DNA from: Bilabrum cf. latius
Lineage: Eukaryota
Direction: 5' to 3'
Assembly (NCBI GenBank): GCA_965178125.1
Contig: OZ237748.1
Span: 992,001-1,056,000 of the forward strand
Length of the DNA: 64,000 nucleotides
Part shown: piece after piece, positions 2,681 to 59,969 of the stretch
Numbering within the stretch: position 1 is the first letter of the stretch
Layout of the letters: every line of letters starts with the position of its first letter
Notes under the pieces: model-generated
The model's database searches: none
Told to the model about the DNA's origin: nothing
What the model saw: only the letters and a program-made list of their open reading frames with translations
Made by a program: the position numbers and the translations under genes

Positions 2681-2746
<66 letters not shown>

Positions 2747-5052: not shown

Positions 5053-5071
5053 GGGGGGAGGCCCGGCCCAA

Positions 5072-6150
5072 ATGGACGGCCATCAGCTTCATCGGGCAGT
5101 CTCGACCGGTGCTCGCCTGTCAGCCAGCTCTCTCAAGGAGCTTGCAGCGACAGCGGAGGTTGCTGATCTTGCTGCCTCCACCTGGGACCATTATCGGGCA
5201 ACTCAGGAGCAATGGAGGCGGTCAGTGTCGCAAGAGGATCGAAGGAGCTCGAGTGATTTCGGTGTGACTGCAGCCAGATTGAAGCCTTTCAAGCCTTAGC
5301 TCAGCCTCCAACTGTCTCAAGCAACGGCAAGTCACCCCCACGCCGAGTCTCCTCCACTCGGACGATGCTCAAGAAGCTCAGTTAGCTCGCCAGCATCGCC
5401 CTGCGCCGTGACTGGACACCAGCCTGGGTCTCCCCCCGCCAAGACCGTATCGTGAAGCAGTTCGTCAAGGGTGTGTTCAATACGCTGGCTAGATTCGATA
5501 TCACGGCGCACTTGGCATCGAAGCGGCCGCTCCGTCTCAGCGAGCTGAGACGTATGCTCCAGCTGCCATGCCACTCAGCCGCAGACGAGCACTGTCAGGT
5601 GGCATTGTTGATAGCATTTATCGGCATGCTTCGTGGCAGCGAATGCTACCCATCGGCCAAAGATGCCGCCGTACCTCTGACATGGAGGCTCCTGGACAAG
5701 AGTGGACAGACCCTAATCCTTGCTCTCCCTCGCGACAAGACCAACTAGCGAGGCGAAGACGATCGCTGTATCGCATTCCCTGAGGCTCCTGCGCCCTTCA
5801 ACGTGCAAAAGCGGCTCCGTCGACTGACTGCCCGCAAGGATTTCTCCATCTCGAGCGGCCTTTTCCCGAGCACGGCCCCCTCATGGTCCCGCAGGAGGGG
5901 TAAACCAATCTTGACAAAGCGGCACTGGACCGATCTGATTCGAGACACAGCCTAGGCAGCCGACGTTATCGGGTTCGAGCGACTAACAGCTCACTCTCTC
6001 CGCCATGGAGCAGCAACGTGCTGCTTGGAACGTGGCGTCCCGGCCGATGTCTTGTAGGCCTTAGGCAGGTGGGCCAGCGATGCTTACAGGGATTATTTGC
6101 ATCCCACGCCCGAGTTCCTTGCTGCTAGTATCAAGAGCATTTTTGTTTAA
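5072..6150 (+). CDS. Tyrosine recombinase of the YR retrotransposon (TAG read as Gln)
   Basis: LAASTWDHY (N-terminal), GMLRGSE (catalytic R), DKTN[TAG]RG, HSLRHGAAT, L[TAG]ALGRWASDAYRDY (catalytic Y). TAG at 5383, 5746, 5953, 6055; ends TAA 6148-6150. The frame change near 5220-5275 is resolved by a candidate intron 5221-5273 (341 aa product). Confidence 0.85.
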
Positions 6151-6621
6151 TAGCTTTGCACAATGCATTCAGTCACGGCATGTTGGCGACAACTAGCCTC
6201 CACTGCTTCTCGGCCAGACCCGTCATCTGTGCTCGGCCCCGGCACAGTCTAGCCAATACCGGGAGTTTGATTTCTATAAATATAGTCTTTGGGATTTTGA
6301 TTTCGACGCATCAGGGGTTTTCCCTCGCCATCTAGACAATTGTGGGAGTTTGATTTTGGGAGTTCGTCTCGGTATGTATGTGTAAACTAGTTGGGATTTG
6401 CCAGCAATCGTTCTAGATGAAAGGAAGAAGTAGCATTCTGGGAGACACTTGGGAGTTCGTAGCACCCTTTTGCATCGGTTACACAACCAATGCATTGAGT
6501 GGCCGTGCACAGCACTGGGATTCACTTCACTACCTCGCCCTATACAAGCTGTACCCGCGGCATTACATACGGCAATGGGCAATACCACGTCAGTGCAATA
6601 CCCCACATGTGGGTAACGGCG

Positions 6622-7570
6622 GGGCAAGCACTGACTGGCAGTGAATCGATACAGGGCTGTTGCTTCGCGCTGTTAGCGGTTGTAACCGCTTCGCCAAGAC
6701 AATCCAAGTCTTGGCAGAGCCGTGAGGCATGGTGACTCGGCAGCCCATACCAGGGCTGCCCGACCACTAGCACATGACCTGGAGATAGAGCCAGGTCGGT
6801 CACTAGACACACGCGTGTCCACAAAGGTGGCAATACGCCACCGCCCTGAGAGCCAAGCATCGTAGCGAGGACTGTAGACCAAGACGAAACAATCTCGCAG
6901 TGATAGATCCCGTCAGTTGTGTGCCGTAGGTACGGAGGCACGTTACGAAGTGATTTAGATCGGAGAGATTGTGTAGTATTGGTCGCAAGTCCGAGCGCAG
7001 ATGTGAGGCTCTCACTTGTTCGGAATTTCGGTGGCACCTGTGTTCTACAGCTGTGCCCCGATATTCTCAGTAATAATTGTCATTATGTGGCAATACACAC
7101 TGGGAAGACAGGCAGGGGCAACTCCATAGGAGGTGATTCCCACTGCTTGATGTTTTGAACCCACCCACCATCCCCGCAGTTACTACCACAGCCGCGCTAC
7201 TGCAGCAGTACCTACTATCGCATCCCATCGCCAGTCTTTTCATTTGTAACTCATCACATTTTACCCGCCCACCTTCCCCCTCGGGCAAGCACTGACTGGC
7301 AGTGAATCGATACAGGGCTGTTGCTTCGCGCTGTTAGCGGTTGTAACCGCTTCGCCAAGACAATCCAAGTCTTGGCAGAGCCGTGAGGCATGGTGACTCG
7401 GCAGCCCATACCAGGGCTGCCCGACCACTAGCACATGACCTGGAGATAGAGCCAGGTCGGTCACTAGACACACGCGTGTCCACAAAGGTGGCAATACGCC
7501 ACCGCCCTGAGAGCCAAGCATCGTAGCGAGGACTGTAGACCAAGACGAAACAATCTCGCAGTGATAGATC
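6622..7570. repeat. 288-bp direct repeat pair (6622-6909 and 7283-7570), candidate B1/B2 terminal repeats of the retroelement
   Basis: GGGCAAGCACTGACTGGC...CTCGCAGTGATAGATC appears identical by eye in both copies, 373 bp apart. Confidence 0.9.
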
Positions 7571-14526: not shown

Positions 14527-14835
14527 GAAGAAGAAGAAGAAGAAGAAGAAGAAGAAGAAGAAGAAGAAGAAGAAGAAGAAGAAGAAGAAGAAGAAGAAGA
14601 AGAAGAAGAACAAGAAGAAGAAGAAGAAGAAGAACAAGAAGAAGAAGAAGAAGAAGAAGAAGAAGAAGAAGAAGAAGAAGAAGAAGAAGAAGAAGAAGAA
14701 GAAGAAGAAGAAGAAGAAGAAGAAGAAGAAGAAGAAGAAGAAGAAGAAGAAGAAGAAGAAGAAGAAGAAGAAGAAGAAGAAGAAGAAGAAGAAGAAGATG
14801 AAGATGAAGAAGAAGAAGAAGAAGAAGAAGAAGAA
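14527..14835 (+). repeat. (GAA)~103 microsatellite with rare CAA/GAT interruptions
   Basis: Directly visible. It lies in a GC-rich, ORF-like but stop-interrupted segment (~13700-15260). Confidence 0.95.
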
Positions 14836-16440: not shown

Positions 16441-18126
16441 TCACGGCTTCTGGGACTCGCGCACATATTCAAACACTTTCTTGAAGTCGTCAGTCGGGTA
16501 TCCCTCCGGGATCAGCGGGGGGGTGGAGAAGAGCGCTCGTTCAAACGTATGCCAGATACCATGGCGCGAGGCCTGCTGCCGCAGGATCAAATTGCCCGAT
16601 TGTAGGTCCAGCACCCTGGCCGTGGGACGCATGTAGGACGTGTCGATGCTCCACAGATACACCCCGCTGTCCATGTCCACGAGAGCAAGATCCCCCACGC
16701 GGTCGCACTCATCCCCCGTGATGACGAGTGCGCACTTCTCGGCCTTGCCCTTGGTCTCTGATCTCCAGGTCTTGCCTCCCTCTGCGAAGGTCTCCACAAG
16801 GTCGCAATCGGACTATAACGTTAGAGAGGCGTCCTTGTTGTCCAATTGCAGCATACGGCCCTTGCGCATGATCTCATCGTCCCACAGTGACTTCCCCCGG
16901 GCGGCAGGTCGCTTGGCGAGCGCCTTTGGATCGCAATGAGGGCGATTCCCATTGATGGCTGCCTGCAGGGCAACCGTCTTGAGACCGTTGCCGAAAGTCT
17001 CGTCCTAGTAGGACTAATCCGCAAATGGCCTCCCCGTAGACCACACGATCGCGCCTCCCTGCTGGTGCAGGACGGCATTCCCGTCCCCCTGCAGACGAAG
17101 GGTGTCTGCACCCGGGTCCATCAGTGAGGTAGGCACCCGCCAGATGTACTGCCCAGAGGCGCTGTCCACGATGGCCAGGTCACCCTGGGTGTCGCACCCG
17201 TCCCCCGTGATGACGAGTGCGCACTTCCCCTCGGTACCCTTGCCCGCCGTGCGGGTCGCAAATCGCGCCGGCCCCCCTTTGTACACCACGAGGTTGCAGT
17301 CTCCCTGCATGTGCAGCTCGACCGGATACCTCTCGTCCTCGCCCGCCCTCAAGGCGGCCCCGGCTCGCAGCACCTGCCCCGGAGACAGCACGTCGCCGCC
17401 GGTCACTTGGTGGTATGAAGATTCCAGAGCCTTTGTATCGCACTGCAAGCTGTGCACGTCCTCCCGCACCTCCAGATCGAAGTGGAACTGCCCGAAACCC
17501 TGCGTCGTGTCGTAGTAATCGGTGCTCCACAGCAGCTGCGCGCCTTCCTGAAGGAGAACGGCATTACCATCCCCCTGGGCCAGAAACGTGTCCACTTCTG
17601 GTGTGAAGATAGAGGATTGCACCCGCCAGAGGTACTTGCCCGTATCCGTGTCGATGATGGCCAGGTCTCCCTGCGTGCTGCACGATGCATCCGTCAAGAG
17701 AAGCGCGCAATGCTCAGCATGAGCCTCGGTGTCGCCCGAAACGAACTAATCCGGTTTGCCCTTGCCGATAACGACCAAATTGCAATCTTTCCGCAGCCAC
17801 ACTACTGTCAAACCTTTGGACAATGCATTATCGAATGGGGCCGCGGCAGAGTGCAGAATCTCGCCTCTCTGCAGCCTGTCGCCCTTTGCTGGCTTCTTCC
17901 TCGCGGCCAAGGCGCTCACATCGCAGGAAAACATGCTAACTTTATCAAATTTGAGGTCAAACTATGTGACTGTGCGGCTATGGTGCCTGCTGCTGCTGGC
18001 GTGGACCGAGACCGACGACATGGAGCCAGCGCTGCGAAGGTGCTGCTGGCCTTTTGCTCGTCGCCCGTGCACACTGACCGCCGAATAGGCAACGAGAGCT
18101 ATCAAACTAGAAACGATTAATTGCAT
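16441..18126 (-). CDS. Secreted multi-domain bulb-type lectin, copy B, intact with TAG=Gln (561 aa)
   Basis: Single frame from ATG 18126 (MQLIVSSLIALVAYSAVSVHG) to TGA 16441. Only TAG interruptions (17962, 17746, 17014, 17005, 16813). Repeated QxDxNxV-type motifs, including LTL[TAG]SDCDLV. Confidence 0.85.
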
Positions 18127-18404
18127 TCTTGCAGATCACTTTGTGCTGATGCAGTGGACGGCAAGGGAACGAGCCGGAATCTTGGCCAGATCCCCGCAAG
18201 GGGTGGATGGCCCGGGGGTGGATGTCTCCAAAAAGGGGTGCACCCCCCCCTCCCCCCCCTTAATATCCACTGAACAATTTGACCACATTACTTGTTCATA
18301 TGCATTACTTTAAAAACTATTGGTGTTTTTGACTTTACGGTGTCCTTGCAAATTGTATTTCTAACTGTTAGGATTTGTCAATCCACCGCACAGATGCACC
18401 TCCT

Positions 18405-26043: not shown

Positions 26044-29000
26044 TTACCCGACCTCGCCCTCTCGTCCCGCATCCTACTGTTCGACCAGCCCATCACCACC
26101 CTGCTCAGCCGCTTCCTCATCCAGATCGTCCTCTTCTTCCTCTTCATCCACAACCAGCGGCGCGGCGCAGTCCAGCTCGCCCGCCCATTCACCCACGGCT
26201 CCAAGCACCAGCTCCTGCACCACCAAGCGGGGCAACAGCTCCGAATCCTCATCGTCATCCTCTTCACCACCCCGCCGCCCCTCGGCCGCCGCACTCATCA
26301 CACCGTCCAGAAGCGGCCACACCGCAGCCCGCGCCGGGCCCCACCCGCACACTGCTCCCGCCGCCAGCCCCACGCAAGCCAGATCCACCTGCAGCTGCTT
26401 CAATCCACCGGTGGACGCCCGCAGGTCGCCGCTCCGGACCCAACGCAGGAGCGGGCGCAGGGAGGATGCAGCCGCCTGCGCCGCCCACGGCCCCGCCTGC
26501 AGACACTCGTCACCCTGCGAACCAGAGGCAGATCCGGATGCGGAACCGGCGCCGCGCCTGCCCATGCGACCGTTGGGCCCGGCAGCGCCCCCGCCACCAC
26601 TCGTCACACCTCCCCCATCGCCCAGCGCCGCAGCCACAGACGCGGCCACGTCGTGCGAGGGACCTGCACCACCGTGCGATGCACCCTGCTCGCCCCCCCC
26701 CGCACCCAGCCCGTCTCGCCCCGCGTCCATGCCGCCCGCAGCTCCTGGCCCCGCCCCGTCCCCACTCGTCACACCCCCCATGGCCCTCATCGCCCCGGGA
26801 AAGACCCCCCCGCACGCCCCCCGCATCGCCTCCGCCGCCCCCTGCCCCCGCAGCAGCTCCGCCACCCCCTCACTCGTCACACCGGGCCCCCCTCCCCCCA
26901 GCGCCGCCACCGCCGCGTCCCTACCCCGGGCCAGACCCCTCGCCCACACCCGCACCGCTGCCCTGGGCCCCTCGGGTTCGAAACCGGGACCGGGCCTCCA
27001 GTCAGCCGCGCTGGCGGACCGCACCAGCAGTGACCCCAGCTTGCGACCAAGTCCCCGAGCAGCTGCTCCGGCCTCCTCCCCCGCGGCCAGGGAACAAGCC
27101 CTCGCCAGGGCAGAAGCCCCCGCCTCGGCCGCCATGCTCGCGGCCTCGCAGGCCTCGGCCTCCTCCCCCCTCCTGGGGCGGGGGAGGAGCAGCTCCCGGG
27201 GGGTGCGCTTGCGGGGGGGGCTGCGCTTGGGGGCTCTCTTCGTGCCGCCATCTTCATATTCGTCCTCCTGTCCATCGTCGTCATCTTCATCTTCATCTTC
27301 GTCGCCCTCCTCCTCCTCCCCGTCCCCAGGATCCGCGAACAGCCCGCTGCGGACGGATCCCAGCGCACTCGTCACACCATGCGCGCCCCACCACCACAGC
27401 GCGCGGGCACACACCAGACGCCCCACCAGACCCACGTCCAGCGCCACACTCGTCACACCCCCAGCCCCAGGGACGCTCGCCAGACCCGCGGCGTACCCCA
27501 GATCCGCCTTGCCCGCCGCCGCCGCAGCAGCACCGTGCAATGCACCCGTAGAGGACCCCTGCGACAGGGCTGCTGGAGTCCTGCCGAATACCACTCCGGA
27601 TGGAGCGTGGTGTGACGACGACGGGGCACCGGAGGAGCCACCGTCGCGACCAGCACCCCCGTGCAATGCACCCGCAGACGGGCCCATGGCCAGGGCCAGG
27701 AAACCGATTTCGGCTCCGGATCTCGCCCCCTCGTCCCGCGACGCACCTCCCCCCGCGCCGCCGCCGCCGGAAACACCCGCCCCCGCCGCACCCCCCACCG
27801 AGGGCACCACGGGCGCCGCCACCGACTCCCACCCGTCCGCACTCGTCACACCACCACCCCCGCTCGCCAGCCGCCGGAGAGCCGCAGGCACCGCCGCGAC
27901 GGCGTCCCCGACGGCCGCCGCGAGCTAAACCGGAAACGCCCTCCCCAGGTCGGGCAGCGCGCGCATGAGGCCGAGCACCAGAGGGCGGCACCTGCGGCTC
28001 GACTGCGCCAGGGAACACAGGGCGGCGGCGCACGCGGCCGCCGCCAACCGGGGTCCCGGCCGGTTCCGCAAGCGCGGCGCCAGCGCCTCCACCGCCGCGG
28101 CCGCTTGTTCCCTGGCCTGGGCCTCGAACCACCGGCGGGCTGCGGCGGTGGGCGCCCCCGGCCCCAGCCGCATGCCCTCGAGTGGCAGCCCGGGGAGCAG
28201 GGGGGGGGGCTCCACGGGGGTACCCGGTTCCGCAGGGGTTCCGCTGCGCGGCGCCGATGCGGCGGCCCGTCCTGCAGCCGCGTTGTCCATGGCCCCTGGC
28301 GCGGCCAGGACAGCCGCCAGCAGAGCATGAACCGCTCTGCGCCTGCCCGCCCCCAGTGCCCCCTGCACGCCCAGCCGAGCCGCCCCCTCGGCCGCTTCCG
28401 CCCCCCTGTCCCTGAGCCTTAGGCTGGGGGGGAGCTGGGGGGCCAGGGCCTAAAGGGAGACGAGGAGAGTCTGAGCCGCCCTAGAGGCGCGCGCCGGGGT
28501 GTGACGAGCGCCAGGGGAGGCGCATGCCGCGGCGCTCAGGGCCAGAAGGGTCCTTCCGTGGGTCAGCAGGGTGGCCAAAGCGGGTTTGGCCACCTCCGCC
28601 GCGATCAACCCGGCGATGGGCCCTCTGCCGAGCCTGTCGCCCCCACTGCCACCGCTGCCAGAACTGCCTCTGCCTCTGCCTCTGCCTCTCCGACTATGAT
28701 CATCACCATCGTCGCCGGAATGGCTCCCACCTTGCTGGTGCAATGCCCCCCTCACCCGAGCCACGAGAGCGGTTGCACCCGGGGGCAGCGGCAGCGGGCA
28801 GGTGCCCATGGGGACCGCACTCGTCACACCTCCACCCCTGCCACCCTCGCCCCCACTCCCACCCTCACTCGTCACACCCCTCAGCACCCCCTCGGCGGCC
28901 AGGACCCCCTCCCGCAGGGCACCCAGCCAGCCCCCCGCGGCTCCTTCCGCGAACCGATCCGACGCCTGCTCTAGGCCCTCCCCCTGTGCCTCCGTCTGGA

Positions 29001-30981
29001 AGGGGGGGAGGCCTAGAGCAGAGGAAGAGGGTGACCCGGACTTGGAGGCCGGAGGCTTCGCACTCGTCACACCCCCATCACCGCCCCCAGCGGTCCCCGG
29101 CAGAAGCCCGTGCAGCTCCCCGGCGCACAGCCCGCCGCGCCCCGCACTCGTCACACCAAGGCGAGCCGCGGCCGCCTCGAGGGCCCCCCGCAGCCACAGC
29201 AGCAGCAGCGCCCCGACCTCGCACTCGTCACACCCCACCCGCAGCAGCAGGCCGGCCGCCTCCGTGACCTGCCCCGCCCCCCGGAGCGAGCCCAGCCGGG
29301 CGGACTCGGAGCCGGAAAGAGAAGGGGGCTCCCAGGCGGGGGCGCCATCGTGCAGTGCACCCATAGCACCGGCCATCCCCGCGGAATCTTCATCTTCAGC
29401 GCCGTCATCGTCGAGCCCAGAGCGGCGGGCCTCCGCGGCATCTGCCGCCGCGCGCGCCCACGCCGCCGCCGGCTCCAGGCCGGTCCCCGCACTCGTCACA
29501 CCCGAAGCATCGCCGCCCGTGTTCCCCTCTCCCCCCTCCTCCGCCCTGCCTCCATCGCGACCGCCGCCCGCCGCCGCCGCCGCCCCCCACATGCGCCTCC
29601 ACAGCCTGACGCGGAGCCCGGCGGCCGCCATCTCCGTCTCCCGGGCGATGGGCGCCAGCAGCACCCGCACCGCACCGCCGTGCGATGCACCATCCCCCCC
29701 ACCGCCCTCCTTCGATTCTCCCTCCTCACTCGTCACACCCTCACTCGTCACACCCACGGCCCGCAGCCCCTTGACCCCCCCCTCGTAGTACCTCCCCGCC
29801 TGCCCCTCCGCCCCCAGCTCCACCGCCCGACGGAGCCGGGCGGGCAGCCGCAGCAAGGCCTCGAGTCGTCTCAAGCGCCGCTGCTGCCCCAGCAGCCGAC
29901 TCACCTCCTCCCGTCTCCGCCGGAGGGCGCCGTCCACCAAACCGGAAGTGTCCGCCAGCCGGTCCATCCTGCCCCTCAGGGCGGCAGAGGCCTCCCCGAT
30001 GCCACCCGCGGCGCCCCTCACGTCCCGCACCGTGGAGGCCGCGCCGAGGAACCTTCGGTAGTTGGCGTACACGAGTTCCTGCACGCCGCCCAGGAGAGAT
30101 TGCCGCTCCGAATCCAGGCGCAGGCTCTCTGCGGCCAGCGAGGCCACGTCCTTTGATCGGAGCAGATGCCTCACGTACTCCTTGGGCTCCAGCTGCGGGG
30201 AGTCGATGTCGAGGGCCGGGGGGTTGGCCCTGTGTCCCGGGTGCATCTGGGCGGAGGAGGGGGAGGGGCCTTCTTTGCCTCCAGCAGCCGTGTCGATCCT
30301 GCCCAGATCACCCATCCCACCTCCGTTGGTTTGTTGCTCCTCCTCCTCCTCCTCGGGAGCAGAGACACCGTAGAACTGCTCCATGAGAGCCATCATCCTG
30401 CGAGTGGGGGGGGGTGAATGGCGGTGAGTGAGTGGGAGGAGAGTGGGCGATGCACTCGAGGTGCAGTACCATGCTACAAGACATGGACGGGAATGATACG
30501 ATACCAGCCCAGGATGGATCCGCCAAGCGCGACGACGGTAGGAGAGAGACTGGTGTGATGACGCACCGTTTGACGGGTGAAGGACGGCGTGCACGGTACC
30601 AAGATGAAAGCGGAGGATGCAAAGCACACCATGTTGCTGCATATTCGATACGGTATGCCGGCCTACAGATGCGGCGCACCTGTGACAAGATTGCGCTGCA
30701 GCCAAATAGGCTCGCGGGCGTGATGCAACATCCGCATGCGCCAGCATCACTGGCAGCCTAGAGCTATACATCCACGGCGATTTCATTTGCTGTTGTACAC
30801 ATATAACTGAATGATCTGTTCGATCGCTCATGCGTGGAACCGGTGACGCTGGATCCACTGCTACAACAGCGTCTGCAACACCCACGGCTGGCGTTACACA
30901 CGGCAGTGCAACCGCCAAAGTCACTGCGCTAGCTGAGCTCAGATCTCACTTCATGTCATCGTCATCTCCATCTGCTGCCAT
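26044..30981 (-). CDS. VPS51: Vps51 (GARP/EARP tethering complex subunit)-like protein with low-complexity insertions
   Basis: LMEQFYG...DIDSPQLEPKEYVRHLL...LVYANYRRFLGAASTVRDV...LEALLRLPARLRRAV matches the Vps51 N-terminal domain. The main exon ~30397-26044 is one frame across TAG at 28450, 27925, 26074 and ends TAA 26044-26046. A short first exon (ATG 30981, MAADGDDDDM, GTGAG donor) is inferred; 5' exon structure is uncertain. Confidence 0.8.
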
Positions 30982-31765
30982 GCCTTCTGTATTTCAAGAT
31001 AGGCGGAGCTTGCACATCAATTTCCCGAAATTGGTATTTTAAGAATGTACAGTGCTATTCAAAGGGTTCAATCCGGATTCTTCTTCGGTTGCAGTTTAAC
31101 TGGTTTCAGCTGGCGCAACATATATCGATCGGCACTGTAGGTGAGCAAAGTTTGTCATTTACTTGACCTGATCTGATGTTCGAGTTCGCGTTGACACTTG
31201 TCGCGTTGAGCGGATCATAGTTCCGGTTCATGTCTCAATGGGCGAGGCGCGCAGGCCGCCTCTGCCACGCGCTGCGTCAAATGACTGTTTTGTTTGCCGG
31301 AATGCTCGCTGCAGCTGCGTATTTATTGTCTCAGAGCAGTTGAATCTGTAGGTCTACGTTTGACTCTTGCCTGCCCGCAAGCATGTTGCGGTCGGGGCGA
31401 GTCTGCGACTTGGCTTGAGATGCAGCTGCCTGCACCTACTTTGCATGCGCACCGACATTCGCACAGGCCCTGTTTTGCAAATAATCACGGAATTATCTCG
31501 TTTGGCTCAATTAATCGCGGTTGCCTACGCACGGTGCTTCGAGCCTAGCTTGATCCACCATTTGCATCCACAGCCGTGCCCGTTGCACTCCGTCCAGCCC
31601 GGGCAACAACATGCCACATCTTACTTGCAATGCATCGCAGGTCTACGTATACGAGAGTAACGCTTGCTCTCAAAAAAATCCGGCTGAAGCTCGCATTCAG
31701 CACAAACACCCAGGCGCGCTTCCATCCAACGAGGCCTTCCAAAGACCCCGGACGCACTCGTCATC

Positions 31766-34700
31766 ATGGCAGGCTCGCAGCAGGATGACCCGCAGCAGCC
31801 GCCGCGATTCGGGGCCGCAAGCGCGTTCCCGCCAAGCTCCTCCTCCTTGTCCCCGCCCGGGGGCATCAGGGGGGGTGTCGCCGCAGGGGTGGGGTCCGGG
31901 CGAGGAGGGGGCGGGGGGGGCACGCCCCCCAGGGGGGGAGGGGCCGCCGTCCCCCCCTCCTCCTCCCCCGACCGCCCCCACTCGTCACACCACCACCCGG
32001 CCACCCCCGGGGCCATGCAGCAGCTCGTGCCCCTGCTCTCCCACGTGCAGGCCGCCTTCGGGGCCGCAGGATAGCCGCCCCTCCCCCTCCCGCGGGTGGC
32101 ACTGATCGGGGGCCAATCCGCGGGCAAATCGAGCGTGCTGGAGGCCATCGTGGGGAGGCCCTTCCTGCCCCGGGGAACCGATGTGACGACTAGGCGGCCG
32201 CTTGTCCTGTACCTGCAGACGGTGGGAGAGGAGGAGGCGGCGGCCCTCAGGCACGCCTCGGCGGCGGCGGCGGCGGCGGCCGAGGCCCAGCGGCAGCGTG
32301 AGGCGCAGCGGGAGGGAGGTGTGACGAGTGAGGGGGGAGAGGAGGGGAAGGGGGACGGCGTTAGCGGCGGCGCATCGCACTCGTCACAGTCAGTCCCTAG
32401 GCCCCCCCCCGCTCCGGCCAGCGCCAGCGGGGAGTGGTGCGAGTTCCTGCACCGCAGGGGGGAGCGGTTCGTTGATTTCGACGCGGTGCGGGAGGAGATC
32501 GAGAGGGAGACCGCGCGGGTGTGCGGGCCGCAGAAAGGGGTGGATCCGGAGCCGATTCACCTGCGGGTGCACTCCCCCTGGGTGCCCACCCTGACCCTGG
32601 TGGATCTTCCGGGTTTGACCAGGGTGCCTGTGGGGGACCAGCCAGCCGACGTGTCCACCCGCATTGAGGGCATGGCCGAGCGGTATGCCAGCGACGAGCA
32701 GACGCTGCTGCTGGCGGTCACACCAGCGACCGACGACCTTGCCACGAGCGCGGCATTGGAGCTGGCGAGGAAGGTGGACCCTAGAGGGGTTCGAACCCTG
32801 GGGGTGCTGAGCAAGTGCGATCGGGTGGACGCGGGGGCGGGGGCGGCGGTGACTGCGGCGCTGCGCAACGGGGTGGTTCCGCTGAGGCTGGGGTGGGTGG
32901 GGGTGGTGTGCCGGGGCCCGCGGGCGGAGGAGCAGGGAGTCACTTTGCTGCAGCAGAGGCAGCTGGAGAGTCAGTTCTTCGCGCGGCATCCCACGTTCCA
33001 AAGGCTCGGGGGCCGGGCGGGGATCGGGCACCTCGCCCGGAGGTTGGCGCAGACTGTGCTTGAGAGCGCCCGGGCGAGGCTTCCTCGGATCAGGGAGCGG
33101 CTTCAGGCGGAGCTGCTGCACCAGGAGAGGGAGGCGGGGCTGGACAGGGACAGGGGTGTGACGAGTGGGGGTGCTGGTGCGGGGGAGGACGACGGCGCCG
33201 GTGGTGAGGGGGGGGGTTCTGCCGGTGGTGCTGTGAGGGGTGGGCTGCTCTTGTCCCTGGTGAGTGGGTATTCCCGGAGGTACGTGTCCATGCTTGAGGG
33301 GAGGCCGGATGACGAGTACGACGAGGACGAAGATGAAGAGGATGATGGGAACATGGGTGGGCGTGGGCGGGGTGCAGTGCACGGTGGTGCGCAGGAGAGC
33401 AAGGAAGCCTCTTCTCGTGCCCAGGGGGGGCGGGGGCGCAGGGAGGTGCCACGACCCCCGGGGGGTGGGGGCGCTCAGGAGGGGAGTTACCCCGCGACCC
33501 CGGGACCCCAATACGGGGGGGACACCACCACTACCCCCGGGGCCCCCTCCGTGGCCCCCCCCCAATCCACCGTTGGATTGCCCGCGTCCTTCAGAGCCGC
33601 TCAGGCTGCGGCGGAATCCAGGGCCGTGCGAGACGCGGCGAAGGACGGGACCTACGAGAGTGCACTGCACGGCGGTGCACTTGGGGGTGCGTAGGGCGCT
33701 GCCGGGGGGTAGTACGGAGCCAGCGGTCGTGGCGCGGCCGGCGGTGGTGTGACGAGTGGGGAGGAGGGTGACAGGGGCCTGGGAGCACTCCCCCGGGGCG
33801 GGGCCCGGCTGCGGAGCGAGGTGTTTGAGCGGTTCGCCAGAGGCACGATCGAGATGGACCCCCTGGGGGGTTTGGGGACGGGTGACGTGGCGGCTGCGAT
33901 CAGGGCACACACGGGGCCCGGGCCCGACCTGTTCGTTCCCCAGGGGGTGTTCGACTCGCTGGTGCGGAGGCAGGTGCGGAGGCTGGAGCAGCTGGGACTG
34001 GCCTGCGTGCGGCAGGCGTATGACGAGTGCAAGGCGGTGGCGGCGCGGGCGGGCGACGGGGGTGGCTTGCCCCGGTGGGGGCGGGCACGGGAACGGGCGG
34101 TGGAGGAGTGCAGGGCATTGCTGCGCTCCCAGCTGCGACCCTGCGAGGCCTTCGTCAGGCAGCTCATGCAGTGCGAGCTGGCACACGTGAATATCCAGCA
34201 CCCGGATTTCCTGGGGGGCGATGGGGCGCTGGGGAGGGCCAAGGCGTGGGCCGACAGGGTGGGGCCCGCCCTCCTCGTGGACGGTCCTCACTCGTCACAC
34301 CACCGCCACCACTCGTCACACCACCACCACTCGTCACACCACCACCACTCGTCACACCAGGAGCCGTGGGTCCTCCCCGGGGAGGCGCCCCCGAGGGACA
34401 GGGAGGACGAGGCCGCCCTACTCTTCGGGGGCAGGGAACCCAGGGAACAACTGGAGGCGGCGCTGCAGCGGGAGCTCGGTGTGGCGAGTGAGGGCGGCGC
34501 GACGGCCTCCCCTTCCGCGGGTGCGCTGCAGCTGCAGGTGCTGGGGCAGCAGGGCGCCTTCCGGTGCGGCGAGCTGCAGCTGCAGGTGAGCGGTGGGGGC
34601 GGGGAGGACCTGGACGGTGTGACGAGTGTGCCGCTGGACACGGAGGCTCTGCTCGCGCGCCACTGGCCCGTTGCCGCAGCTGTGGCGGGGGCTGTGGCGG

Positions 34701-35878
34701 GGGCGGGGGCCGGTGCGTCCTACCCCCCTGATCACTCGTCACACCGCTCCCCCCCTCAGTCCTTCCCCCGCCGGGTGTGGCTCCCGGCGGAACAGGCCGA
34801 GGAGGCCCGTATGCTTCGAGAGTGCGTGCGGTCCTATGTGACGATTGTGCAGCGGCAATGGGCGGATCTCGTCCCCAAGGCGGTCATGTGCCTGTTGGTG
34901 GGAGCCTCCAAGCAGAAGGTGCACGCCCATCTGGTGCAGCGGATGTACGGGGGCGCCACGGACGCCCAGAGGGTCTGGGAGCGGCAGGGGAGGCCCTCGA
35001 TCCAGGGGCCTCTGTACCAGCTGACCACCGAGACGGGCGAGGCAGCCGCAAGGAGGAGGAGGGCGGGGGCCGTGGTGCGGGCGCTGCGGAGGGCCCTGAG
35101 GGCGGCCGATGCGGTGGCTGCTGCGGAGGAGGGGGGCGCCGCGGGGCTGCTTGGGGGGGGTGGGGGGAATGGGGTGGGGGCGGCGGGGCTGGTGCCGGGG
35201 GGTGTGACGAGTCTGGAGGACGAGGAGGTGGCCATGCAGCAGCAGTAGCAGCAGGGGGGGTATGGGCCGAAGGAGGGAGGCGATGAGTGGAGTGGTGGGA
35301 TGTATGGTGTGACGAGTGCGGGCGGGGGTGCCTCGAACGGGGTGGTGCGGGAGGAGGAGGCTGTGGCGGCGGCTCGGTTCTACGCCTCGCAGCGGGCCCT
35401 GTCTGGCGGGGGCGGGGGTGTGACGAGTGATGGGGGCCTGGGCGTGGGGGTGTCGAATCCGTGGGGCGTGGGGGGATCGGCCTACGGGGTCGGCGGGTGG
35501 GTGATGGAGAGTGTAGGTCGTGTGCCACTGGGCGCGTCCCCGCCGCAGCCTCCCGCCTCGCAGGTGTCGTCGGGGAGGGGTCGCAAGGACGGTGTGACGA
35601 GTGGGAGTGGGGGTGCTCCGGTGGCTGGGGGGCCCCCGATCGTGGGGAGGGGTCCATCGGGGGGTGGGTCTGGTGAAAGTGTGACGAGTGGGTCCAGGGG
35701 CGGGTCCGTGCTGCGTCGGGCGGCGCACGCACCGGCGCACCTGGGTGGGGAGCGGTCGGTGGGTGTGACGAGCGATGCGCACCAGCGTCGGGTCCGCGGC
35801 AGTCCGGGGAGCGTCACTGGGTCTGTGACCGCGGCCGGAAGGGCGGATGTGCCTGCTTTGGGGTCGGGCGGGCGGTGA
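31766..35878 (+). CDS. Dynamin-related GTPase (Drp1/Dnm1/Vps1 type), 1370 aa with TAG=Gln
   Basis: MQQLVPLLSHVQAAFGAAG[TAG]PPLPLPRVALIGGQSAGKSSVLE, LPRG..VTTRRPL, LVDLPGL, LSKCD, ELAHVNIQHPDF, GED SYVTIVQRQWADLVPKAVMCLLV. One frame with TAG at 32072, 33692, 33710, 35246; ends TGA 35876-35878. ATG ~32015 is an alternative start. Confidence 0.9.
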
Positions 35879-36283
35879 GGGTGTCTCGTGTCTGCCTCTG
35901 GCTCGCGCAGCATCATCCGCATAGATCGATCGATGATTGATGATTGATGGGGACGCCGCGGCAGGGATATTTGAGTGTGCTTGCACAGTGCGAAAGGGGC
36001 TTGTTTATCAGTCGGTGCTTGCTGTTGAACTCGAGACCATCGATACCGGAACCACAATGAAACCGGAACCGCGCATCGTTCTCGATCCGATGGATCGAAC
36101 GCAAGAACCCAGGGCTTGGTGCTGCCTACGCTGCGGATGTCGCGCAGTTCCGAGGCCAAGAAAAATACAGATCCGTTCACGTCATCTAATGTGTGGTGAG
36201 TTCCATCGTGATGTCTGCTACTGGCAAATTCTCAAGCGACCAAAGCAACCCTTGCTGCTCGCCTTTCGTTGCGTGTCCTACAG

Positions 36284-37932
36284 CATTGAGGATATGATTG
36301 CTGCTGTACATGAAGACAGCAGCGATCGAGTCAGAGAGAATATCGCCAGAGGTGGCCATCCGGACGTTGTAACTGCAGTGAGGCATGTCGCTGCGTTCTC
36401 GGTGGTCCGTCATTCATGCTTGCACTGCATGGTTGCATTTCTGTTTGTAGGGTTTTTCGCCTAGATTAATTACCGGCAAGCTGCAGCATCCGACAGAAAT
36501 CGCGTTGTCTGCGGCTCATGTTGCTGCAAAGGAGGGCAAGCCAAAAGCCCTCGCCGCGCTGCTCGAGTGCGGGGCCGACCCCAACCCAATCTCCACGGTG
36601 AGAACGACCAATGGCAGGTTTTGAAGCCGCGGGCATCGAGCTGCGTGCGAAAGAGCGAGGCTAACCTGCTGTACGAGCGATGTCCGCTCAAGCCATCCTC
36701 GCGCCGCGCCCACCACGCCCTGACTGCACTGACGCTGTCATCTCCACACCCCACCCACACAACCGTTCGCACAGCTCGAGTTCACCCCGCTCCACTTCGC
36801 CGCCATGCGAAGAGAGGATGGGGCTGAACTGGCTCGAATCCTCCTGCGCGGAGGGGCCCGCGTGAATCCCTGGCCTGACATGGTGAGCAGCCGCAGTGCT
36901 GCTCTGCGGCCCGTCGCAATGCAACGCTGCATTCCACCGCGGAATCGAGCAGGAATGACGTAGTTGCATCGCTAGCAACCAGGACGTATGATGCAACTGA
37001 GGCAAACGGCCATGTCATTGTGCAGTTCGCATCTTTTGCATGGCCCTCTTGCATGGATCCGCAGCTCAAGTTTAGTCCCCTCCATGCCGCTGCGAGGGCA
37101 GGGGCTGCAGACGTCGCCAGAGTGCTGATTAGGGCGGGCGCCGAGGTCAATGCCTGCACAAAAGTGAGAGGCGCTGCATTGTAACTCGAGTTGGCATTTA
37201 CGAGTCTAGCAGCGTATGGCAAGCGGTTCAAGCTGTGCTATGTGTTGTGCTCCGCTCGCAATCGTTGCATTGATGACCCCATGAGCCAAGCAGAGTATAT
37301 GATTGCGATATAGGGAATCCCGTCGTAGTAGTATATCGGTTAGATATCGCTTTCGTTAAAGGAGTCACTGTTTCACAGTCTGGAAAAACTCCACTGCACA
37401 TGGCGGCCAAGCAGAAGGATCCTGCTTGCGCATTTGTGCTGCTGCAGGCAGGGGCCAACCGGCAGGCGGTGCACGGAGTGAGGCACTTGCGCGATCAGAG
37501 CACAAGCACACTGCTTTGCTGCAGATGCATACGGTCTTATTGATTCTGTCTGCATATTCCCTCCTTGTTCACACGACTTAATTTCGCAAGCAGAGAAGGG
37601 AACGAACCCCGGAGGAGAGAGCAGAGCACTTCGGGTATCATGTCACAGCGAGGTGTATCCGGCAGTTCAACCATAGGAATAGATACTTGATTCGATGGAG
37701 AAGGGCGGTGGAGGCCAATCAGGACGCTGGGAGGGTGTTTCATGCAGCCGCCGAGGGCAGGCCCATGGAGTTGGCTAAGCGATTAAGGCTGGACAAGCTG
37801 GCTGGCGGGCTGCAGATGAAGGGTACTGTATTGCTTCCGGATGGGAGCACCAGGTAGGTCATCCCGCTGGAAGCAGCCAGGCTGTGCGGGCATGTTGAGT
37901 GCGTAAAGCTTCTGGAAGTTGATAGCTACTAA
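36284..37932 (+). CDS. Multi-exon ankyrin-repeat protein with RLRL(G/D)KL module (5' end uncertain)
   Basis: Exons flanked by CAG/GTGAG encode SAAHVAAKEG...GADPN, FTPLHFAA, FSPLHAAARAG and GKTPLHMAA. Last exon WRRAVEANQDAGRVFHAAAEGRPMELAKRLRLDKLAGGL; TAG at 37855; ends TAA 37930-37932. Confidence 0.75.
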
Positions 37933-38776
37933 GTTAGTCCTGTGGGTCCTGCAATATGCCAGGCAACGATACGTGTTGGGGAGGCCGATGAGATCTCTGA
38001 GATCCAGGGGATTGGAGTCGCCCGCTGGCAGAACCTCTTGGAGGTGGTGGATCAAATCCGGATGTGACGCAGCAAAGCGATGGAATGAGCGGTCAGGGAT
38101 GCCAGTCCAGCGGGGTGCGAGAAGCAGCGGCGGTTATGATAGTGGAGCGAAGGTCACAGGCGGAGGAGGGAGGGGATCTATCACTGCCAGTGCGGGGAGG
38201 GGTGATGGTACCAGGTGGTACACACCATGTGGGTGTATCTGTCCATGGTGCTCACCGATCACAGATCGAAGCCGTGCATCGGCAACGGGACTTCTGCTGA
38301 GGATGGATTCATATCCGATCTACAGATCCCTTCAGTTGCACTGCAATGTGATGGCAACCACTGCAGCACATGTCCTGCGGGAGGAGCAGCGGCAATCAAG
38401 GGGTGGAATGCCTGCAAAACGTACTTTTGTGCACTTGGTACACTATCCCTGATGTGGAATGTGGAGTAGCGTGTATGGAATGTGTTGCGTGAAGTATCCA
38501 GGATTTTGTTTGCGTACCCAACTTGGGTATGGCCAGTGCGTGGTGTACCGCGACTTGGCTATCCGTGGCTATCCTTGTACATTTTGGATGCTTGGCGGAA
38601 ACGTCAGCTAGCTCTATCGTAGCAATGCACTGCAATTTTGATCCGCGCAGCCGGCACTTTGGGCATGACACTTCCGGTATTCAGGTTGGTGGCTGGAGAT
38701 TGCCGAGTGCCGAGTCGCAATGCGACAGCAGCAGAAGCCCGATCCAGCCCCAGCTAGTGCACAGGACTAGCCTGTC

Positions 38777-41700
38777 TCAAGCACTGTTGGCTTGCGCTGG
38801 CACGGTGCTTGATGCCTGCGCCTCGCCAGCCTGCCTTTCAGCGTACGCTCCTGCACCTTGGGAGGCCCCTGCTGTTTGGACAGGTGACTCGCTCTTGGGT
38901 GCCGCCGCAGGTCCGCAGCACAGGAAGTACGCCGCAGTACTACCCCCGCCCAGAACGAGTCCCACCACGGCTCCGATGATGATGCCCACGACCATGCTCC
39001 CGTCGTCGTCTTCGGCGCAATTTCCGCTGCCGTCCGGGTTGTTGCCATCGAGTGGACTGTCATCTGTCGCCGGGTCGTTCGACCCACTACCGGGGTTCGG
39101 ATTGGAGCTCGGTTGGACCCCGATCGTGGGTTGCATGCTCGAGCCGACGCACGCATCGATGGCCACGCCCGAGTCCACGTTGGAGCCCATGTACTGGGTT
39201 GTAAGCTGGAAGCCCTCTTGCAGGGTCAGAGTGCCGAGCGACGGAAAGTTGATGCTGGTCCCTTCAGTGGCAGCATCAACGACCTGGTCCAGGTCGAAGT
39301 CGATGTCACCCACGTTGATGACAGCGGAAACAGCCCCAGCCTCCATGCCGACAGTGGCATCAGAGCATGAATCAGCAGTAATGGTCTGTGCACGCCTGTC
39401 CGCGCTGCTGCCCTGTGCAGGCTCGGCCCAGCTGTCCAGTGCCGGGGCCAAGTCAGTCGTGCCCTCAACTTTCACGGAGAACTCAACACCAGCGAAAATC
39501 TCAACGGGAATGAGGCCGTACAGGTCGATGGTCAGCTTGGGACCGACAGCAACGGTCGTTCGGCCTCCGACGATGGACACGGACTCATCCTGAGTGACCA
39601 CAGCCAAGGGGCGAAACGCGATTGACCAGTCTGCGCTCGCGATCGGCGATCCAGGGTCGACATCATCGTTCAGATCTGGGCATTCGAGTTCATGATCATC
39701 TCCTGACGCGGTCTCGCAGCCCGCGTTGGCGAAACAGTAATCCGACCCGAAAGTGGGATTGTAGCATCTCGACACGCAGTAGCAACCGTCTCCGTCCGTC
39801 TTCCCGTTTCTGTACGTGAAGCCTAGCTCTGCCTGGGCGGTGGCAGTGGCACCAACCTTGAGCTTGGTAGCTGTTGCGAACCGGTTCACACCTCTAGCGG
39901 CAAGTGCCACGTCACTGCCGATGACGACAGGGAAGGGACCCACGGTAAGACGAACGTTCGGTAGCGATATAGGGGCAGAAAGCTCCGTGACGTCACTTTC
40001 CGGGACGACGCTAGTCATGTCAGCAACGAGGTCCGCCTTCACTGTGGCATCGCCCACCACCTTGACATCCAGTCTCGTCACACCGAGGCGGGGGGAATCG
40101 GTCCCGGGAGGTCTGGCATACCCGGCGAAAGAGAACTCGAGGCTAGCATCGAACTTGGCGTAGCTGCGGTGAGTCAAAGAGGCAGGTATAGGAACTAGTA
40201 GGCCACTGGTATCAAGGGCATGAAACGTGTCACAGCAGTCTCCAGATTGTAGGCTAGTAGGGGGGCTGTGGGGCCGTGCAAGCGGCCATGTGCGCACGCA
40301 ACAGGAGACAATCAATGACGAGACCAGCGCACACGGATGCAAAAACTCACGATTCCTCGAAGTAGATGGTGTCCTCCACGAGGTCTAGCTGGGCCGTAAC
40401 GGCGCTGTCAGTGGTAGAATCGTAGTTGAAGCCCCAGCTGAACGCGTCCACGTCGCAGCCGTAGTTAAGCGTGGCGAAGTTCTCCGGCAGGATGGCCCCA
40501 ACCTCCTCACGGCTGCAAGAAAGCTCCTGTGCACGTCGAGCCTCCGGGCTCGAAGCTGTGCTGTGGTCTGGGCTGATGTGAACATCCATGTCAAAGGCTT
40601 CCGCTGCCATGTGAGGGGGGACCTGCTGAGCTCTGAGCCGAGTCACCCACAGCGTTGCTCCGGTCCTGTCGGTCACCTGCTCCGGGACCGTGCTCGATGT
40701 GATCATCACGGTCTGGCCAACTCCGAGTCCATCATTGGCAGCACCGGTCTCTTCTGCTGCTCCGCCGGAAACATCTCCGAACAGGGGGGTCACTTCGTCG
40801 GCTCCTGCACCCTTACGCACCGCGCAGGACCAGCCCTCCTCCAGCGTGAGTGCCTGCCCGGGCTCAAGCACCATCGGGACGACGGAGAAGATCTGCATGT
40901 CGCTGGACCCATGATTGGGACATTGCACGCGCACTACTTCGGGGCGATCCTCCAGCACGACGGTGGAGTTGAGCAGCACTGCATGGTACTTGATCTTGGA
41001 CTTGCCGATGCCCGGGGCATGCACCTCTGACACATGCAGGTACCGCCCTCCGTGGCGCCCACCCGATTCCTTGGCAGTCTCGATGGGTGTCGTGCGGCGA
41101 CCGATGACCATGAGTCCTGTGTGCGCTGTCGGCTGGAAGTCTCGTGCGAGAAATTCCATGGGCGCGAGGCGGCGAGAGCTGTCTGCTTGGTGACCGGCCC
41201 TTCCTGAACCGGACGATTCGCTGCGCAGATGTCTTGGAAGTTCTCCTTTAGAGCTGCTCGAATGCACTTGAATGGCTTGGTCTAGCTCCTGAGCGTGCAC
41301 ATCGCTTAGGACCCGCCTGTGGTCGACAGCTGTGGAAGCGTGCACGGTCTGAATCGTCGCCCCGTGCTGCGACGCGAAATTCCGCGCGGCCTGAAGGTTC
41401 TGTACCAGATTACACTTCTCTGATTTTCCACACAAGTGTAGAATGGCATGGCTCTGGCCAATTGACCGACAATCGGATGCCTACGGAAATGATCGGATCA
41501 AAACAACAATAGCTAGCTTGCAGAGAAGCGGGCCTGATATGCTCCAATATTGCGTCTAGTAGATCGCAGCAGTGCACATTCATGATAAATAACATATCTT
41601 ACTCCGGGGATGGCAGCTAGAAGCGCCTCGCAGCCGGGTAGGGCTCCTTCAGGCAGCGAGACAGCCACGCCGACCTGTTCGTGGGAATGCAAGTCCCACT

Positions 41701-41803
41701 TGGAGTACATCTGAGATACCTTGGCTTCTGTGAGGGCTTCCGGTGAACACTTGACTAGATTCAGCGAGCATCCCAGCAGCACAATGGAGGCAATCGCGCG
41801 CAT
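38777..41803 (-). CDS. Uncharacterised type-I membrane / cell-surface protein (about 3 exons)
   Basis: Signal peptide MRAIASIVLLGCSLNLVKC; long ORFs 40347-41435 and 38777-40342; Cys cluster CYCVSRCYNPTFGSDYC...C; Pro/Asn/Gly linker; TM segment MVVGIIIGAVVGLVLGGGSTAAYFLCC; ends TGA. Confidence 0.7.
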
Positions 41804-42369
41804 CGCTTTGCCCTGCAATTCTAAGAGTGCGAGTGTGGGCAAATTCCGAAACTCGAATTGTTGTCGTAGTCGTCACACCTGCATCGTAATTCCGCCGGCT
41901 GAATTCGAATTATTGCAATCCGCTAAACTCGTTTTGGGTTAGGACTTGGGTATTCCAATGAGCGTAACTCAGTCGAGGCTTTATACTGAAGCACCAACCA
42001 GCGCGTGTTACACTCGCTGGGCGGCGCCCCAATGCCAGGCCTGCCCACTGCCACTGCCAGGGCACCATCTTCTTGACATCCAGTGGACCCGTCCGCTCAG
42101 CTTCAACCAGCGTATTGATCTATAATCTTATTGGTTAATTGCGTAATTCATGGTCGACAACATAGTTTCCTGACGGTGCCCACCCTTCATTGTATTATAC
42201 TTGTTGGTGGGGCCAGCAAGGTCTCTGAGATTGAGGTCGCGCGGTGGGCGCAGGACCCGCTCGAGGTGTAAGCCCGATTGGAACAGTACGTGTCGCCATG
42301 GCACCTCCTGTACGATGCAGCGAGACTCATCCGGCTCTTCAGCCCTAACATGCATCACCTGGTAGACTA

Positions 42370-42590
42370 ATGGAGGAGGGCAGTGGAGAGGCCACGAGGA
42401 ATGATGGGTTGGTGTTCCAGGCAGCAAGCAAGGGCAGGCCCATGGAGCTGGCAAGGAGGCTGAGGCTGGGCAAGCTGGCAGGCGGGCTGGAGATGGAGGG
42501 CGAGGTAAAGCACGAGTCGGGCGGCACCAGGGTGGCGAGTCACGTACGATTACATGAAGCTGCTGGAAAAGGCCATGGAGGGCTAAGCTC
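42370..42590 (+). pseudogene. Isolated, degenerate fragment of the RLRLGKL module exon
   Basis: LVFQAASKGRPMELARRLRLGKLAGGLEMEGEV with indels on both sides and no adjoining ankyrin exons. Confidence 0.65.
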
Positions 42591-43057
42591 AAAGTGGAGT
42601 ACTAAATTGTCAAATGTTCTGTACCTTTTATAATTATAATATTGCACTGGAACTTCATTATGGACGCCATCTTGCTCGCGATTGACCTCGCCTTGGTATT
42701 CACGAGGGCCCGTCATTCAATTGGGACCCGCTACAATTCACACAACATGATAGCCACTGGACACGTAGTATCGACCCACTGTGATTTTGAATCGCACGCA
42801 TGTTGCAAAAGATAGTGCAGCTACAGGTGCAGGGCACTGGGGCACTGTCATCACCGTGAAGCTGACCCGGCCTTGACTAGGTCCATCTATCGAGCAGCGG
42901 ACACCACGAACGCAGTAGGCTGTTAAAGTATTTAAGCATGAGGTGTGCACTGTCTGGATTGTGATGCTTCCTTGTTCGCGATCATGTGCTCCCAGCCGTC
43001 ACCAGTTCTTCTGTTCTCAGTTAGTCACCCCCGGCTCCACGTCCAAGCTTTCGCAGT

Positions 43058-44824
43058 AAAGCAGATATTTTCGCAGCAGCTCGTAAAAGCGATATCGGCA
43101 AGATCAAACGGCTAGCAGATGAAGGAGCTGATTTGAACTGCTCCACCGTCGGGGTGGGATACGATGCCATCTTTCGGCTCCGATGCAAGCTGTCTCCTCA
43201 ATTACAACAGGAATATTATAGCGTTGCACCAGTACGCATTCGCAGACACAACATACAGCGCTCCATATTGCAGCAAGAGATGGGAGAGACGCATCTCTCG
43301 AGGCGCTGCTCGAGTGCGGAGCGGACCCGAATGCTCGCACCACAATTTAGGCTGTGCGTACGAGAGCAATACTGGCAGCTGGCAGCGGCAAGACTCTCAG
43401 AATGCATCCAATTAATTCAACCACGATGCAACCTTCTTGGTGCCCTGTCGTATCCCCGCAGGATAATTGGACCCCTCTTCACTACGCAGCTTAGCGAGAA
43501 AGTGGCGCAAAGGCGGTGCGGTTGCTGCTTGAGGCAGGGGCGGACGCAGAGCCAGCTGTCCTCGTTCGGGTGAGTTGATACATAAACACGACTGCTTCGT
43601 GTTTGCCCACGCGGTGCCGTGGATCCGAGTGCCACGCACGGGCCCGTGACCGTGCTGTGTTGCCCTACCACAGCTAGATTAAATCGCTGGTTATTTGCGC
43701 TGCGTGGGCCATGCGATTGAACCTCACTCTCACTCTCACCCTAACCCTCACCCATCATGCCTCTCTGGAGTGCACCAGGACGCAAGATCCGTCCTAAGTT
43801 TCTTGTAGTGGCCCCCCGTATGCTGAACTTTTCGCAGTTCTACAACAGCCCGCTGCACCTGGCCGCCCGATCCGGGGCCTTGGACAGCGTGAAGCTGCTA
43901 GTGGAGGCTGGCGCAGACGTTTGCGGCAGGAACCTAGTGAGTAAATGTCGAGAACATGTCCGCGCACGGCTGGTATGCTGGTGCGGCATGATATAGTGGG
44001 GTTGTTGCAGTTCCGGCTGTAACCATCGGGCGATTGGGAGCCGAGAACTACCACCACAACTTCGGAACCTGCTCGTTTTCTTTGGTATGGTACCAATTCA
44101 CTCGTCACATATCGATCCTCAACCCCCCCCCCCCCCCCCCCCCTCAACAGTCGGAAGAGACCCCCCTCCACGAGGCTGCCACCAGGCCAGACCCAGCCTT
44201 CGTGCGAGAGCTGCTGTGGGCGGGGGCAGACAAGCATGCTCTCGACGTTGTGAGGTGCAGCGCATTGCAGTATTGATGTGTGTCTATGTAGAAGAGCAAG
44301 GTCCTTAGCATATCGAAGTATGTGTTCCCGCCACCTGGCCCCCCCTACTCCAGGCTGGGAACAGCGCCATGCTCCTGGCGGTGTCACAGGGCCACTATGC
44401 GACGGCTGCTTGCATTCGGGACTTCCATCCGATCGTGCCACACATTATTCGATGGAGGCATGCAGTGGAGGCCAAGAGGGACGCTGGGATGATCTTCCGC
44501 GCTGCAGCTGAGGGCAGGCCCATGGAGCTGGCCAGGAGGCTGAGGCTGGGCAAGCTGGCAGGTGGGTTGGAAATCAAGGGCGACCTGGACGACGGGGAGG
44601 GTGGAACCACAGTGGTGGGTCCACTGGAGGCGGCTCGGTTAGGAGGACATGACGAGTGCGTGGAGCTATTGGAGGAGGCAGCCGTGGACGAGCACGATAG
44701 GCGAGCCAGAGCAATCGCGGCCAACAAGAAGAAGCGGCCACAGAGAAAGAAAATCCCGCATCCGGATCAGTTTCCAAATACTGTGATATACCCTGGCTAG
44801 GGTGCTGGGTGCGAACTCAGCTAA
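43058..44824 (+). CDS. Multi-exon ankyrin-repeat protein with RLRLGKL module (first exon not located)
   Basis: Exons encode DIFAAARKSD, HTALHIAARDG...GADPN, WTPLHYAA[TAG 43492], NSPLHLAARSG and ETPLHEAA. Last exon WRHAVEAKRDAGMIFRAAAEGRPMELARRLRLGKLAGGL; reads through TAG 44798 to TAA 44822-44824. Confidence 0.75.
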
Positions 44825-59964: not shown

Positions 59965-59969
59965 AACAG

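Follow-up and report, generated by a model that had tools for sequence, protein, structure and literature searches.

Most of the known departures from the standard nuclear code reassign UAA and UAG together (PMC11687900, PMC5304391), and codes in which the two codons differ in meaning are rare; the cited accounts describe them for Iotanema, for a single rhizarian and for a handful of ciliates (PMC5304391, PMC11687900, PMC10553269). A reassignment of UAG alone, with UAA retained as stop, was first shown in 2017 for the rhizarian exLh, where UAG is leucine, and for Iotanema spirale, where it is glutamine (PMC5304391). Phyllopharyngean ciliates followed in 2024, with UAG as leucine in three TARA genomes and as glutamine in both Hartmannula sinica and Trochilia petrani; in these UAG-reassigned ciliates UAA is the preferred stop, and a suppressor tRNA with the anticodon CUA is expected to read UAG only (PMC11687900). 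There is also a ciliate in which UAA and UAG encode different amino acids (PMC10553269), and the variant with UAG as glutamine has been named genetic code 15 (PMC9523058). Here, we analyse 64,000 nucleotides of nuclear DNA from Bilabrum cf. latius (contig OZ237748.1, positions 992,001 to 1,056,000; "the window" in the following) and ask after the meaning of TAG, TAA and TGA in its genes. As judged from the DNA sequence, this organism probably reads UAG as glutamine and keeps UAA and UGA as stops, UGA being the commoner of the two. A preliminary description of the same DNA had proposed UAG as a sense codon next to UAA and UGA stops; this is supported by glutamine columns, poly-glutamine runs, frame counts and two TAA ends at homolog length, and the literature cited above bears out its general remark that joint changes of UAA and UAG make up most nuclear variants.

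Two described systems share this reading of the codons. Iotanema spirale (Metamonada, Fornicata) is like the window in that only UAG is reassigned, to glutamine, with UAA and UGA as stops in a nuclear code outside the ciliates. However, UAA is its primary terminator (PMC5304391), whereas in the GC-rich window TGA closes nine of 13 frames examined and TAA four, and the best named database matches are to stramenopiles, not to metamonads. Hartmannula sinica and Trochilia petrani also have UAG alone changed to glutamine and UAA as a fixed stop, but they are ciliates that prefer UAA (PMC11687900); the window has GT-AG introns, a myosin-IQ-ankyrin-WW gene in common with Triparma-like relatives, and UGA as its main stop.

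TAG within reading frames and TAA at their ends

Four genes of the window, for dynamin, myosin, Vps51 and pol, are split into two to four pieces each by the standard code. With TAG read through, each of them is a single frame with its Pfam domains in the expected order. The dynamin-family gene (31688..35878, plus strand) has Dynamin_N, Dynamin_M and GED in one frame across four TAG codons and ends with TGA (35876-35878). The myosin gene with its IQ, ankyrin and WW parts (45817..52749, plus strand) runs across five TAG codons to a TGA at 52747-52749, and its database relatives have the same architecture. The Vps51-like gene (26044..30945, minus strand; VPS51_Exo84_N, E = 2.6e-9) has three in-frame TAG, and a TAA closes its frame. 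Seven are found in the pol frame of a tyrosine-recombinase retroelement (949..5052, plus strand; RVT_1 at residues 916-1048; TGA end at 5050-5052), and the one at residue 1040 falls within the RVT_1 match. The tyrosine-recombinase frame (5257..6150, plus strand; Pfam Phage_integrase at residues 92-276; TAA end) contains four TAG codons, of which three lie within the domain match. Another hint comes from the frame x23584, a database relative of which stops exactly one column before the first TAG of x23584; such an end is what a gene caller using the standard code would make of a TAG shared by both.

Codons were counted in eight TGA-to-TGA frames with 7,626 codons, six of the frames being supported by a protein family. 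Frame 0 holds 32 TAG, but neither TAA nor TGA. The respective numbers for TAG, TAA and TGA are 39, 11 and 135 in frame 1 and 50, 26 and 158 in frame 2. The density of TAG in frame 0 is about that of the other two frames, without a single TGA or TAA. This argues against a standard code in which the in-frame TAGs are situated in introns or pseudogenes or are passed by low-level read-through, an explanation that we regard as extremely improbable. It is true that the ankyrin genes of the window have canonical GT-AG introns and that two TAGs of the frame at 43745 lie inside one; furthermore, one TAG/CAG difference between paralogs, the second of its kind, is at a probable 3′ splice site and was for this reason not counted. 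However, housekeeping genes with complete domain sets carry TAG, and the three TAGs within the recombinase domain match also speak against such an explanation. The clearest case is the dynamin TAG at 32072..32074 (plus strand), which follows the N-terminal helix and precedes the P-loop strand by eight residues; since the alignment to solved dynamins is gap-free there, this TAG is neither an intron nor a terminator.

TAA behaves differently. As the preliminary description had stated for conserved domains, no in-frame TAA is present in any family-supported gene of the window. The number expected was calculated by scaling the TAG count of each gene by its own CAA:CAG ratio; this gives 6.7 in the six family-supported frames (Poisson probability of zero, P = 0.0012) and 14.8 in all eight, and none was seen. 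GC bias alone is therefore insufficient to account for the absence of TAA. The argument is directed at genetic code 6, in which UAA and UAG are both glutamine and TAA would be scarce in the window merely through its GC-richness. Tetrahymena and Oxytricha (PMC11687900) and the hexamitin diplomonads (PMC5304391) use this code and share UAG as glutamine with the window. In line with code 6, TAA is the rarest stop triplet on the plus strand of the window (322 TAA, 497 TAG and 917 TGA), and if TAA were used like TAG, the high-GC genes would add less than one expected TAA each. Still, we consider code 6 very unlikely: the scaled expectation already takes account of codon bias, with about 4 TAA due in pol alone and about 7.5 in x23584, and in the window, unlike in code 6 organisms, TAA is absent from frames and closes genes, in the recombinase and in one ankyrin gene at ends typical of homologs. 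In addition, 184 TAA-containing, TGA-delimited frames of at least 100 residues were available for a reading under code 6; 18 of them were picked by eye for lying outside annotated genes. In these, Pfam gave no match that extended across a TAA, and the two matches that were found are the same as with TAG read as glutamine.

The frames closed by TGA are pol, dynamin, myosin, the lectins at 16441, 11667 and 18405, x38777, x23584 and the ankyrin gene at 62422. TAA closes the recombinase (6148..6150, plus strand; the next codon is TAG), the Vps51 frame (26044..26046, minus strand) and two ankyrin-family frames (37930..37932 and 44822..44824, both plus strand). The preliminary description had named these four TAA codons, and TGA for pol, dynamin, myosin and the lectins, and all of them are present where it placed them. 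Its view that the four TAA mark plausible C-termini holds for the recombinase and the ankyrin gene at 37930, where it is backed by the tails of homologs. The ends of Vps51 and of the frame at 44822 could not be anchored in this way and are ambiguous, each with a TAG shortly before the TAA. From the catalytic tyrosine of the recombinase, a column common to all 132 homologs, it is 17 residues to the TAA; among the homologs, tail lengths have quartiles of 18 and 30 around a median of 22, and ten tails are exactly 17 residues long. Read-through to the next TGA would give a tail of 57 residues, which is reached by only nine of the 132. The TAA at 37930 is found five residues past a conserved C-terminal motif. 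Nine out of ten motif-bearing database relatives end 4 to 14 residues past this motif and a paralog ends with TGA 11 residues past it, compared to 50 residues in the case of read-through. For Vps51, which is without homolog anchor, there is an in-frame TAG 10 codons upstream of the TAA (26074-26076) and the next TGA follows 8 codons downstream. The second ankyrin-family frame has a tail of 50 residues and an in-frame TAG 8 codons upstream of its end (44798-44800) and is ambiguous. Judged by the ends of homologs, TAA is thus the closing codon of at least two genes, the recombinase and the ankyrin gene at 37930.

The amino acid at TAG

The most likely amino acid at TAG is glutamine, as inspection of conserved columns suggests. 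The dynamin TAG at 32072 aligns to glutamine in human dynamin-1 and dynamin-3, and of 120 homologs, 94 have glutamine in its column, with many vertebrate duplicates among them. In the recombinase, glutamine is the commonest residue opposite the TAG at 5746..5748 (plus strand; 73 of 132 homologs), which lies within the Phage_integrase match, and also opposite the TAG at 6055..6057 (plus strand), likewise in the recombinase domain and 30 codons before the TAA, with 59 glutamine, 46 lysine and 16 arginine among the same 132. The column of the third recombinase TAG is mixed (17 alanine, 16 glutamine, 15 arginine), and that of the fourth, in a poorly aligned part, is mostly alanine or glycine. Summed with BLOSUM62 over the seven TAG columns that have at least three homolog residues each, glutamine comes first with 7.9, followed by arginine (4.5) and lysine (2.6); leucine is not among the top eight, the lowest of which scores -4.6.

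Three TAGs are in or at poly-glutamine runs: one in the dynamin tail, within a run of CAG codons (35246..35248, plus strand), and two in the myosin tail, where the TAG at 51436..51438 (plus strand) is at the head of such a run and a second one is at 51559-51561. Moreover, the TAG of an ankyrin-family exon (62977..62979, minus strand) is replaced by CAG in the paralog copy (60129-60131), which is 91% identical. The myosin TAG at residue 958 is uninformative since it is situated in an insertion that is absent from 10 homologs, and a search of solved structures with the reverse transcriptase region gave one weak match, with the TAG column outside the aligned part.

A number of observations weigh against UAG being glutamine throughout and against UAA and UGA being the only stops. 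The sample is small, since the 64 kb hold only about a dozen genes with four TAA ends among them, and two of the genes used belong to a retroelement. Two TAG columns of the ankyrin family do not have glutamine, one being mostly leucine (5 of 13 sequences) and another arginine (11 of 12). Opposite TAG, the lectin paralogs have E, T, L, K, D, S, N, Y and R, but never Q, so that their alignment says nothing on the amino acid; glutamine is seen at this place only in a sister repeat inside the lectin 16441. Finally, Vps51, ankyrin 44822 and x23584 (which has a TGA end) each have a TAG at a distance of 8 to 10 codons from their closing stop. These are three cases among 11 frames, compared to about 0.5 expected in a hand estimate from the mean TAG density.

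The leucine column of the ankyrin family is what can be said for UAG as a sense codon for another amino acid, for example leucine. Precedents are exLh and the three TARA phyllopharyngeans, which like the window give UAG a meaning apart from that of UAA, but with UAG as leucine instead of glutamine (PMC5304391, PMC11687900). Given that glutamine is the commonest residue at three conserved columns and first in the BLOSUM62 sum, in which leucine is outside the top eight, and given the TAGs in poly-glutamine runs and the CAG in the paralog copy, there is little room for a different amino acid, and we assign it a very low probability.

Given the excess of TAGs near the ends of frames over the estimate, some genes may end at TAG, and UAG could be position-dependent, that is, sense inside genes and terminator for some of them, as the result of an incomplete or context-dependent reassignment. 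A drop of the GC content at the ends of Vps51 and ankyrin 44822 fits to this assumption, and the near-end TAGs in three frames leave room for a likeness to the context-dependent codes of Condylostoma, the karyorelicts and Plagiopyla (PMC11687900). Against it, two of these three genes either are rich in TAG or have an uncertain structure (x23584 has 9 TAG in 683 codons), and the dynamin frame continues for 210 codons past its last TAG without TGA or TAA. Among the genes of the window, no C-terminus anchored by homologs coincides with a TAG. In contrast to the context-dependent codes, only one codon is affected in the window, and TGA and TAA never occur in frame. We therefore consider a position-dependent UAG unlikely, albeit the least unlikely of the alternatives, and prefer UAG as glutamine with UAA and UGA as stops. 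With this code, established knowledge would lead to the assumption, also made in the preliminary description, that a tRNA-Gln with the anticodon CUA decodes UAG, but not UAA, and that eRF1 would have lost the recognition of UAG and kept that of UAA and UGA.

Gene content, composition and repeats of the window

With TAG as sense, the long frames of the 64-kb window comprise a retroelement, B-lectins, a Vps51-like gene, a dynamin-family gene, a myosin and ankyrin genes. The window is eukaryote-like nuclear DNA of a GC-rich protist. Its GC content per 4 kb ranges from 48 to 72%, and the heterogeneity is strong, with 24001-36000 and 44001-52000 standing apart from the remaining window. In the single-frame housekeeping genes GC reaches 65-72% and the sense strand is rich in G, compared to 48-57% GC for repeats and for the gene families with introns. 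Vps51, dynamin and myosin, all very GC-rich, are one uninterrupted frame each, and the introns of the ankyrin genes are ordinary GT-AG introns that start with GTGAGT and end with a pyrimidine run and CAG. Neither tRNA genes (ARAGORN) nor Rfam families nor an eRF1 gene were found in the 64-kb window.

The retroelement (949-6150) consists of the long pol frame, with RVT_1 as its only match, followed by the tyrosine-recombinase frame. Since both frames use TAG as sense, the element is apparently adapted to the code of its host. No relatives of pol were found in viral contigs, and none of the family alignment A1 in viral and genome contigs. The B-lectin gene (16441..18135, minus strand) has five in-frame TAG and a TGA end, which it shares with its paralogs at 11667-12962 and 18405-19169.

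The ankyrin genes have a common C-terminal domain of about 80 residues that belongs to no Pfam family. Copies are present at 37582-37932, 44345-44824, 62422-63021, 23782-24300 and 42349-42633; elsewhere, the domain was seen in 11 short database relatives and one metagenome contig (L065, 2.7 kb). Ankyrin-family exons and introns are also part of a segmental duplication (59965-61160 and 62811-64000), the copies of which are 91% identical over about 1.18 kb. Directly before the first copy there is a run of 200 N (59765-59964).

Contigs from four sequencing runs were compared to the window over 25400-45300, and they show neither splice joints nor transcript ends, as would be expected of DNA from the same strain or related ones. 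In contigs of two runs, position 36803 is connected to 43301 through 26 other letters, which points to an insertion/deletion of 6.5 kb that differs between strains. The same runs have no cover over 38.7-42.0 kb.

Two further regions contain unusual frames. A (GAA)n microsatellite at 14527-14836, with about 103 units and 97% matches, is the source of long but artificial open frames on either strand. At 56123-58059, two frames are linked through one in-frame TGA (56972-56974), followed by a frame change. By eye the region resembled a piggyBac-type transposase, but Pfam gave no family and the name was dropped.

The Vps51, dynamin and myosin genes share a recurrent word of 13 nucleotides, a G plus a 12-mer, of which all 41 exact copies in the window are inside these three genes. 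There are 34 sense copies, 33 of them in one codon phase that reads Gly-Val-Thr-Ser, and seven antisense copies, which share a single phase with the reading His-Ser-Ser-His. Conservation is limited to the 13 nucleotides and does not extend into the flanks. In an ankyrin repeat of the myosin the word is contained in a 9-residue insertion that is absent from 10 homologs, and the tetrapeptide Gly-Val-Thr-Ser occurs only once in the 292,177 residues of 401 database proteins. The same stretches with the word are unchanged in contigs from runs of other studies. In the dynamin gene, the antisense word forms an 18-nucleotide tandem array (34289-34359) that reads as a His/Ser run; the run contigs differ here by 3 and 18 nucleotides, so that the variation of the array stays in frame. 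A second in-frame word of about 20 nucleotides with an internal palindrome is present at 10 sites in Vps51, dynamin and myosin, low-complexity parts of dynamin and Vps51 included, and reads Gly-Ala-x-His-Gly-Gly-Ala.

Our best guess is that the 13-nucleotide word is a putative translated insertion of a selfish or minisatellite-core-like kind. Selection would keep it only in a harmless phase; we propose that it is found in one sense phase because the other two give TGA or Cys-Asp-Glu. A short intron was considered and rejected, since the domains run in one frame across the word, only 13 nucleotides are conserved, and the real introns start with GTGAGT. A scan of metagenomes with two copies of the 12-mer yielded 122 loci of varied GC content, mostly unrelated tandem repeats, and L065 is the only one of them with a relative of the ankyrin-family domain. 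The literature search for the 12-mer returned, as judged by title, only unrelated biomedical or engineering papers.

Lineage and meaning of the code

Proteins of the organism itself are absent from the protein database. The best database matches of the myosin are about 50% identical, and where matches of this architecture carry a name, it is Triparma. For dynamin, the best named match with long coverage is from Cafeteria and is 39% identical across 77% of the query. A quick dynamin tree gives no placement since the sequence from the window is on a very long branch, together with two database sequences. A stramenopile-like affinity may therefore serve as a lead only.

The code variant itself is known, but the lineage appears to be new. 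Apart from the cases named above, searches in the main text of papers gave no nuclear UAG reassignment in stramenopiles or in GC-rich non-ciliates. We consider it an evenly balanced proposition that the window represents an independent and unreported origin of a code with UAG as glutamine and UAA as stop, in a GC-rich protist outside the ciliates, fornicates and rhizarians and with UGA as the main terminator.

For the annotation of Bilabrum cf. latius, the consequence is that gene calling with the standard code would truncate its proteins at every TAG. A GC-rich lineage that ends its genes mainly with UGA would differ from the known cases, in which UAA is the main stop. Each independent case is a test of whether the coupling of UAG and UAA is a hard constraint, and each offers a natural pair of eRF1 and tRNA that tells UAG from UAA, which is also relevant to genetic-code engineering (PMC5304391). 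If the origin is indeed independent, Bilabrum cf. latius would be a new natural system with an eRF1 that separates UAG from UAA.

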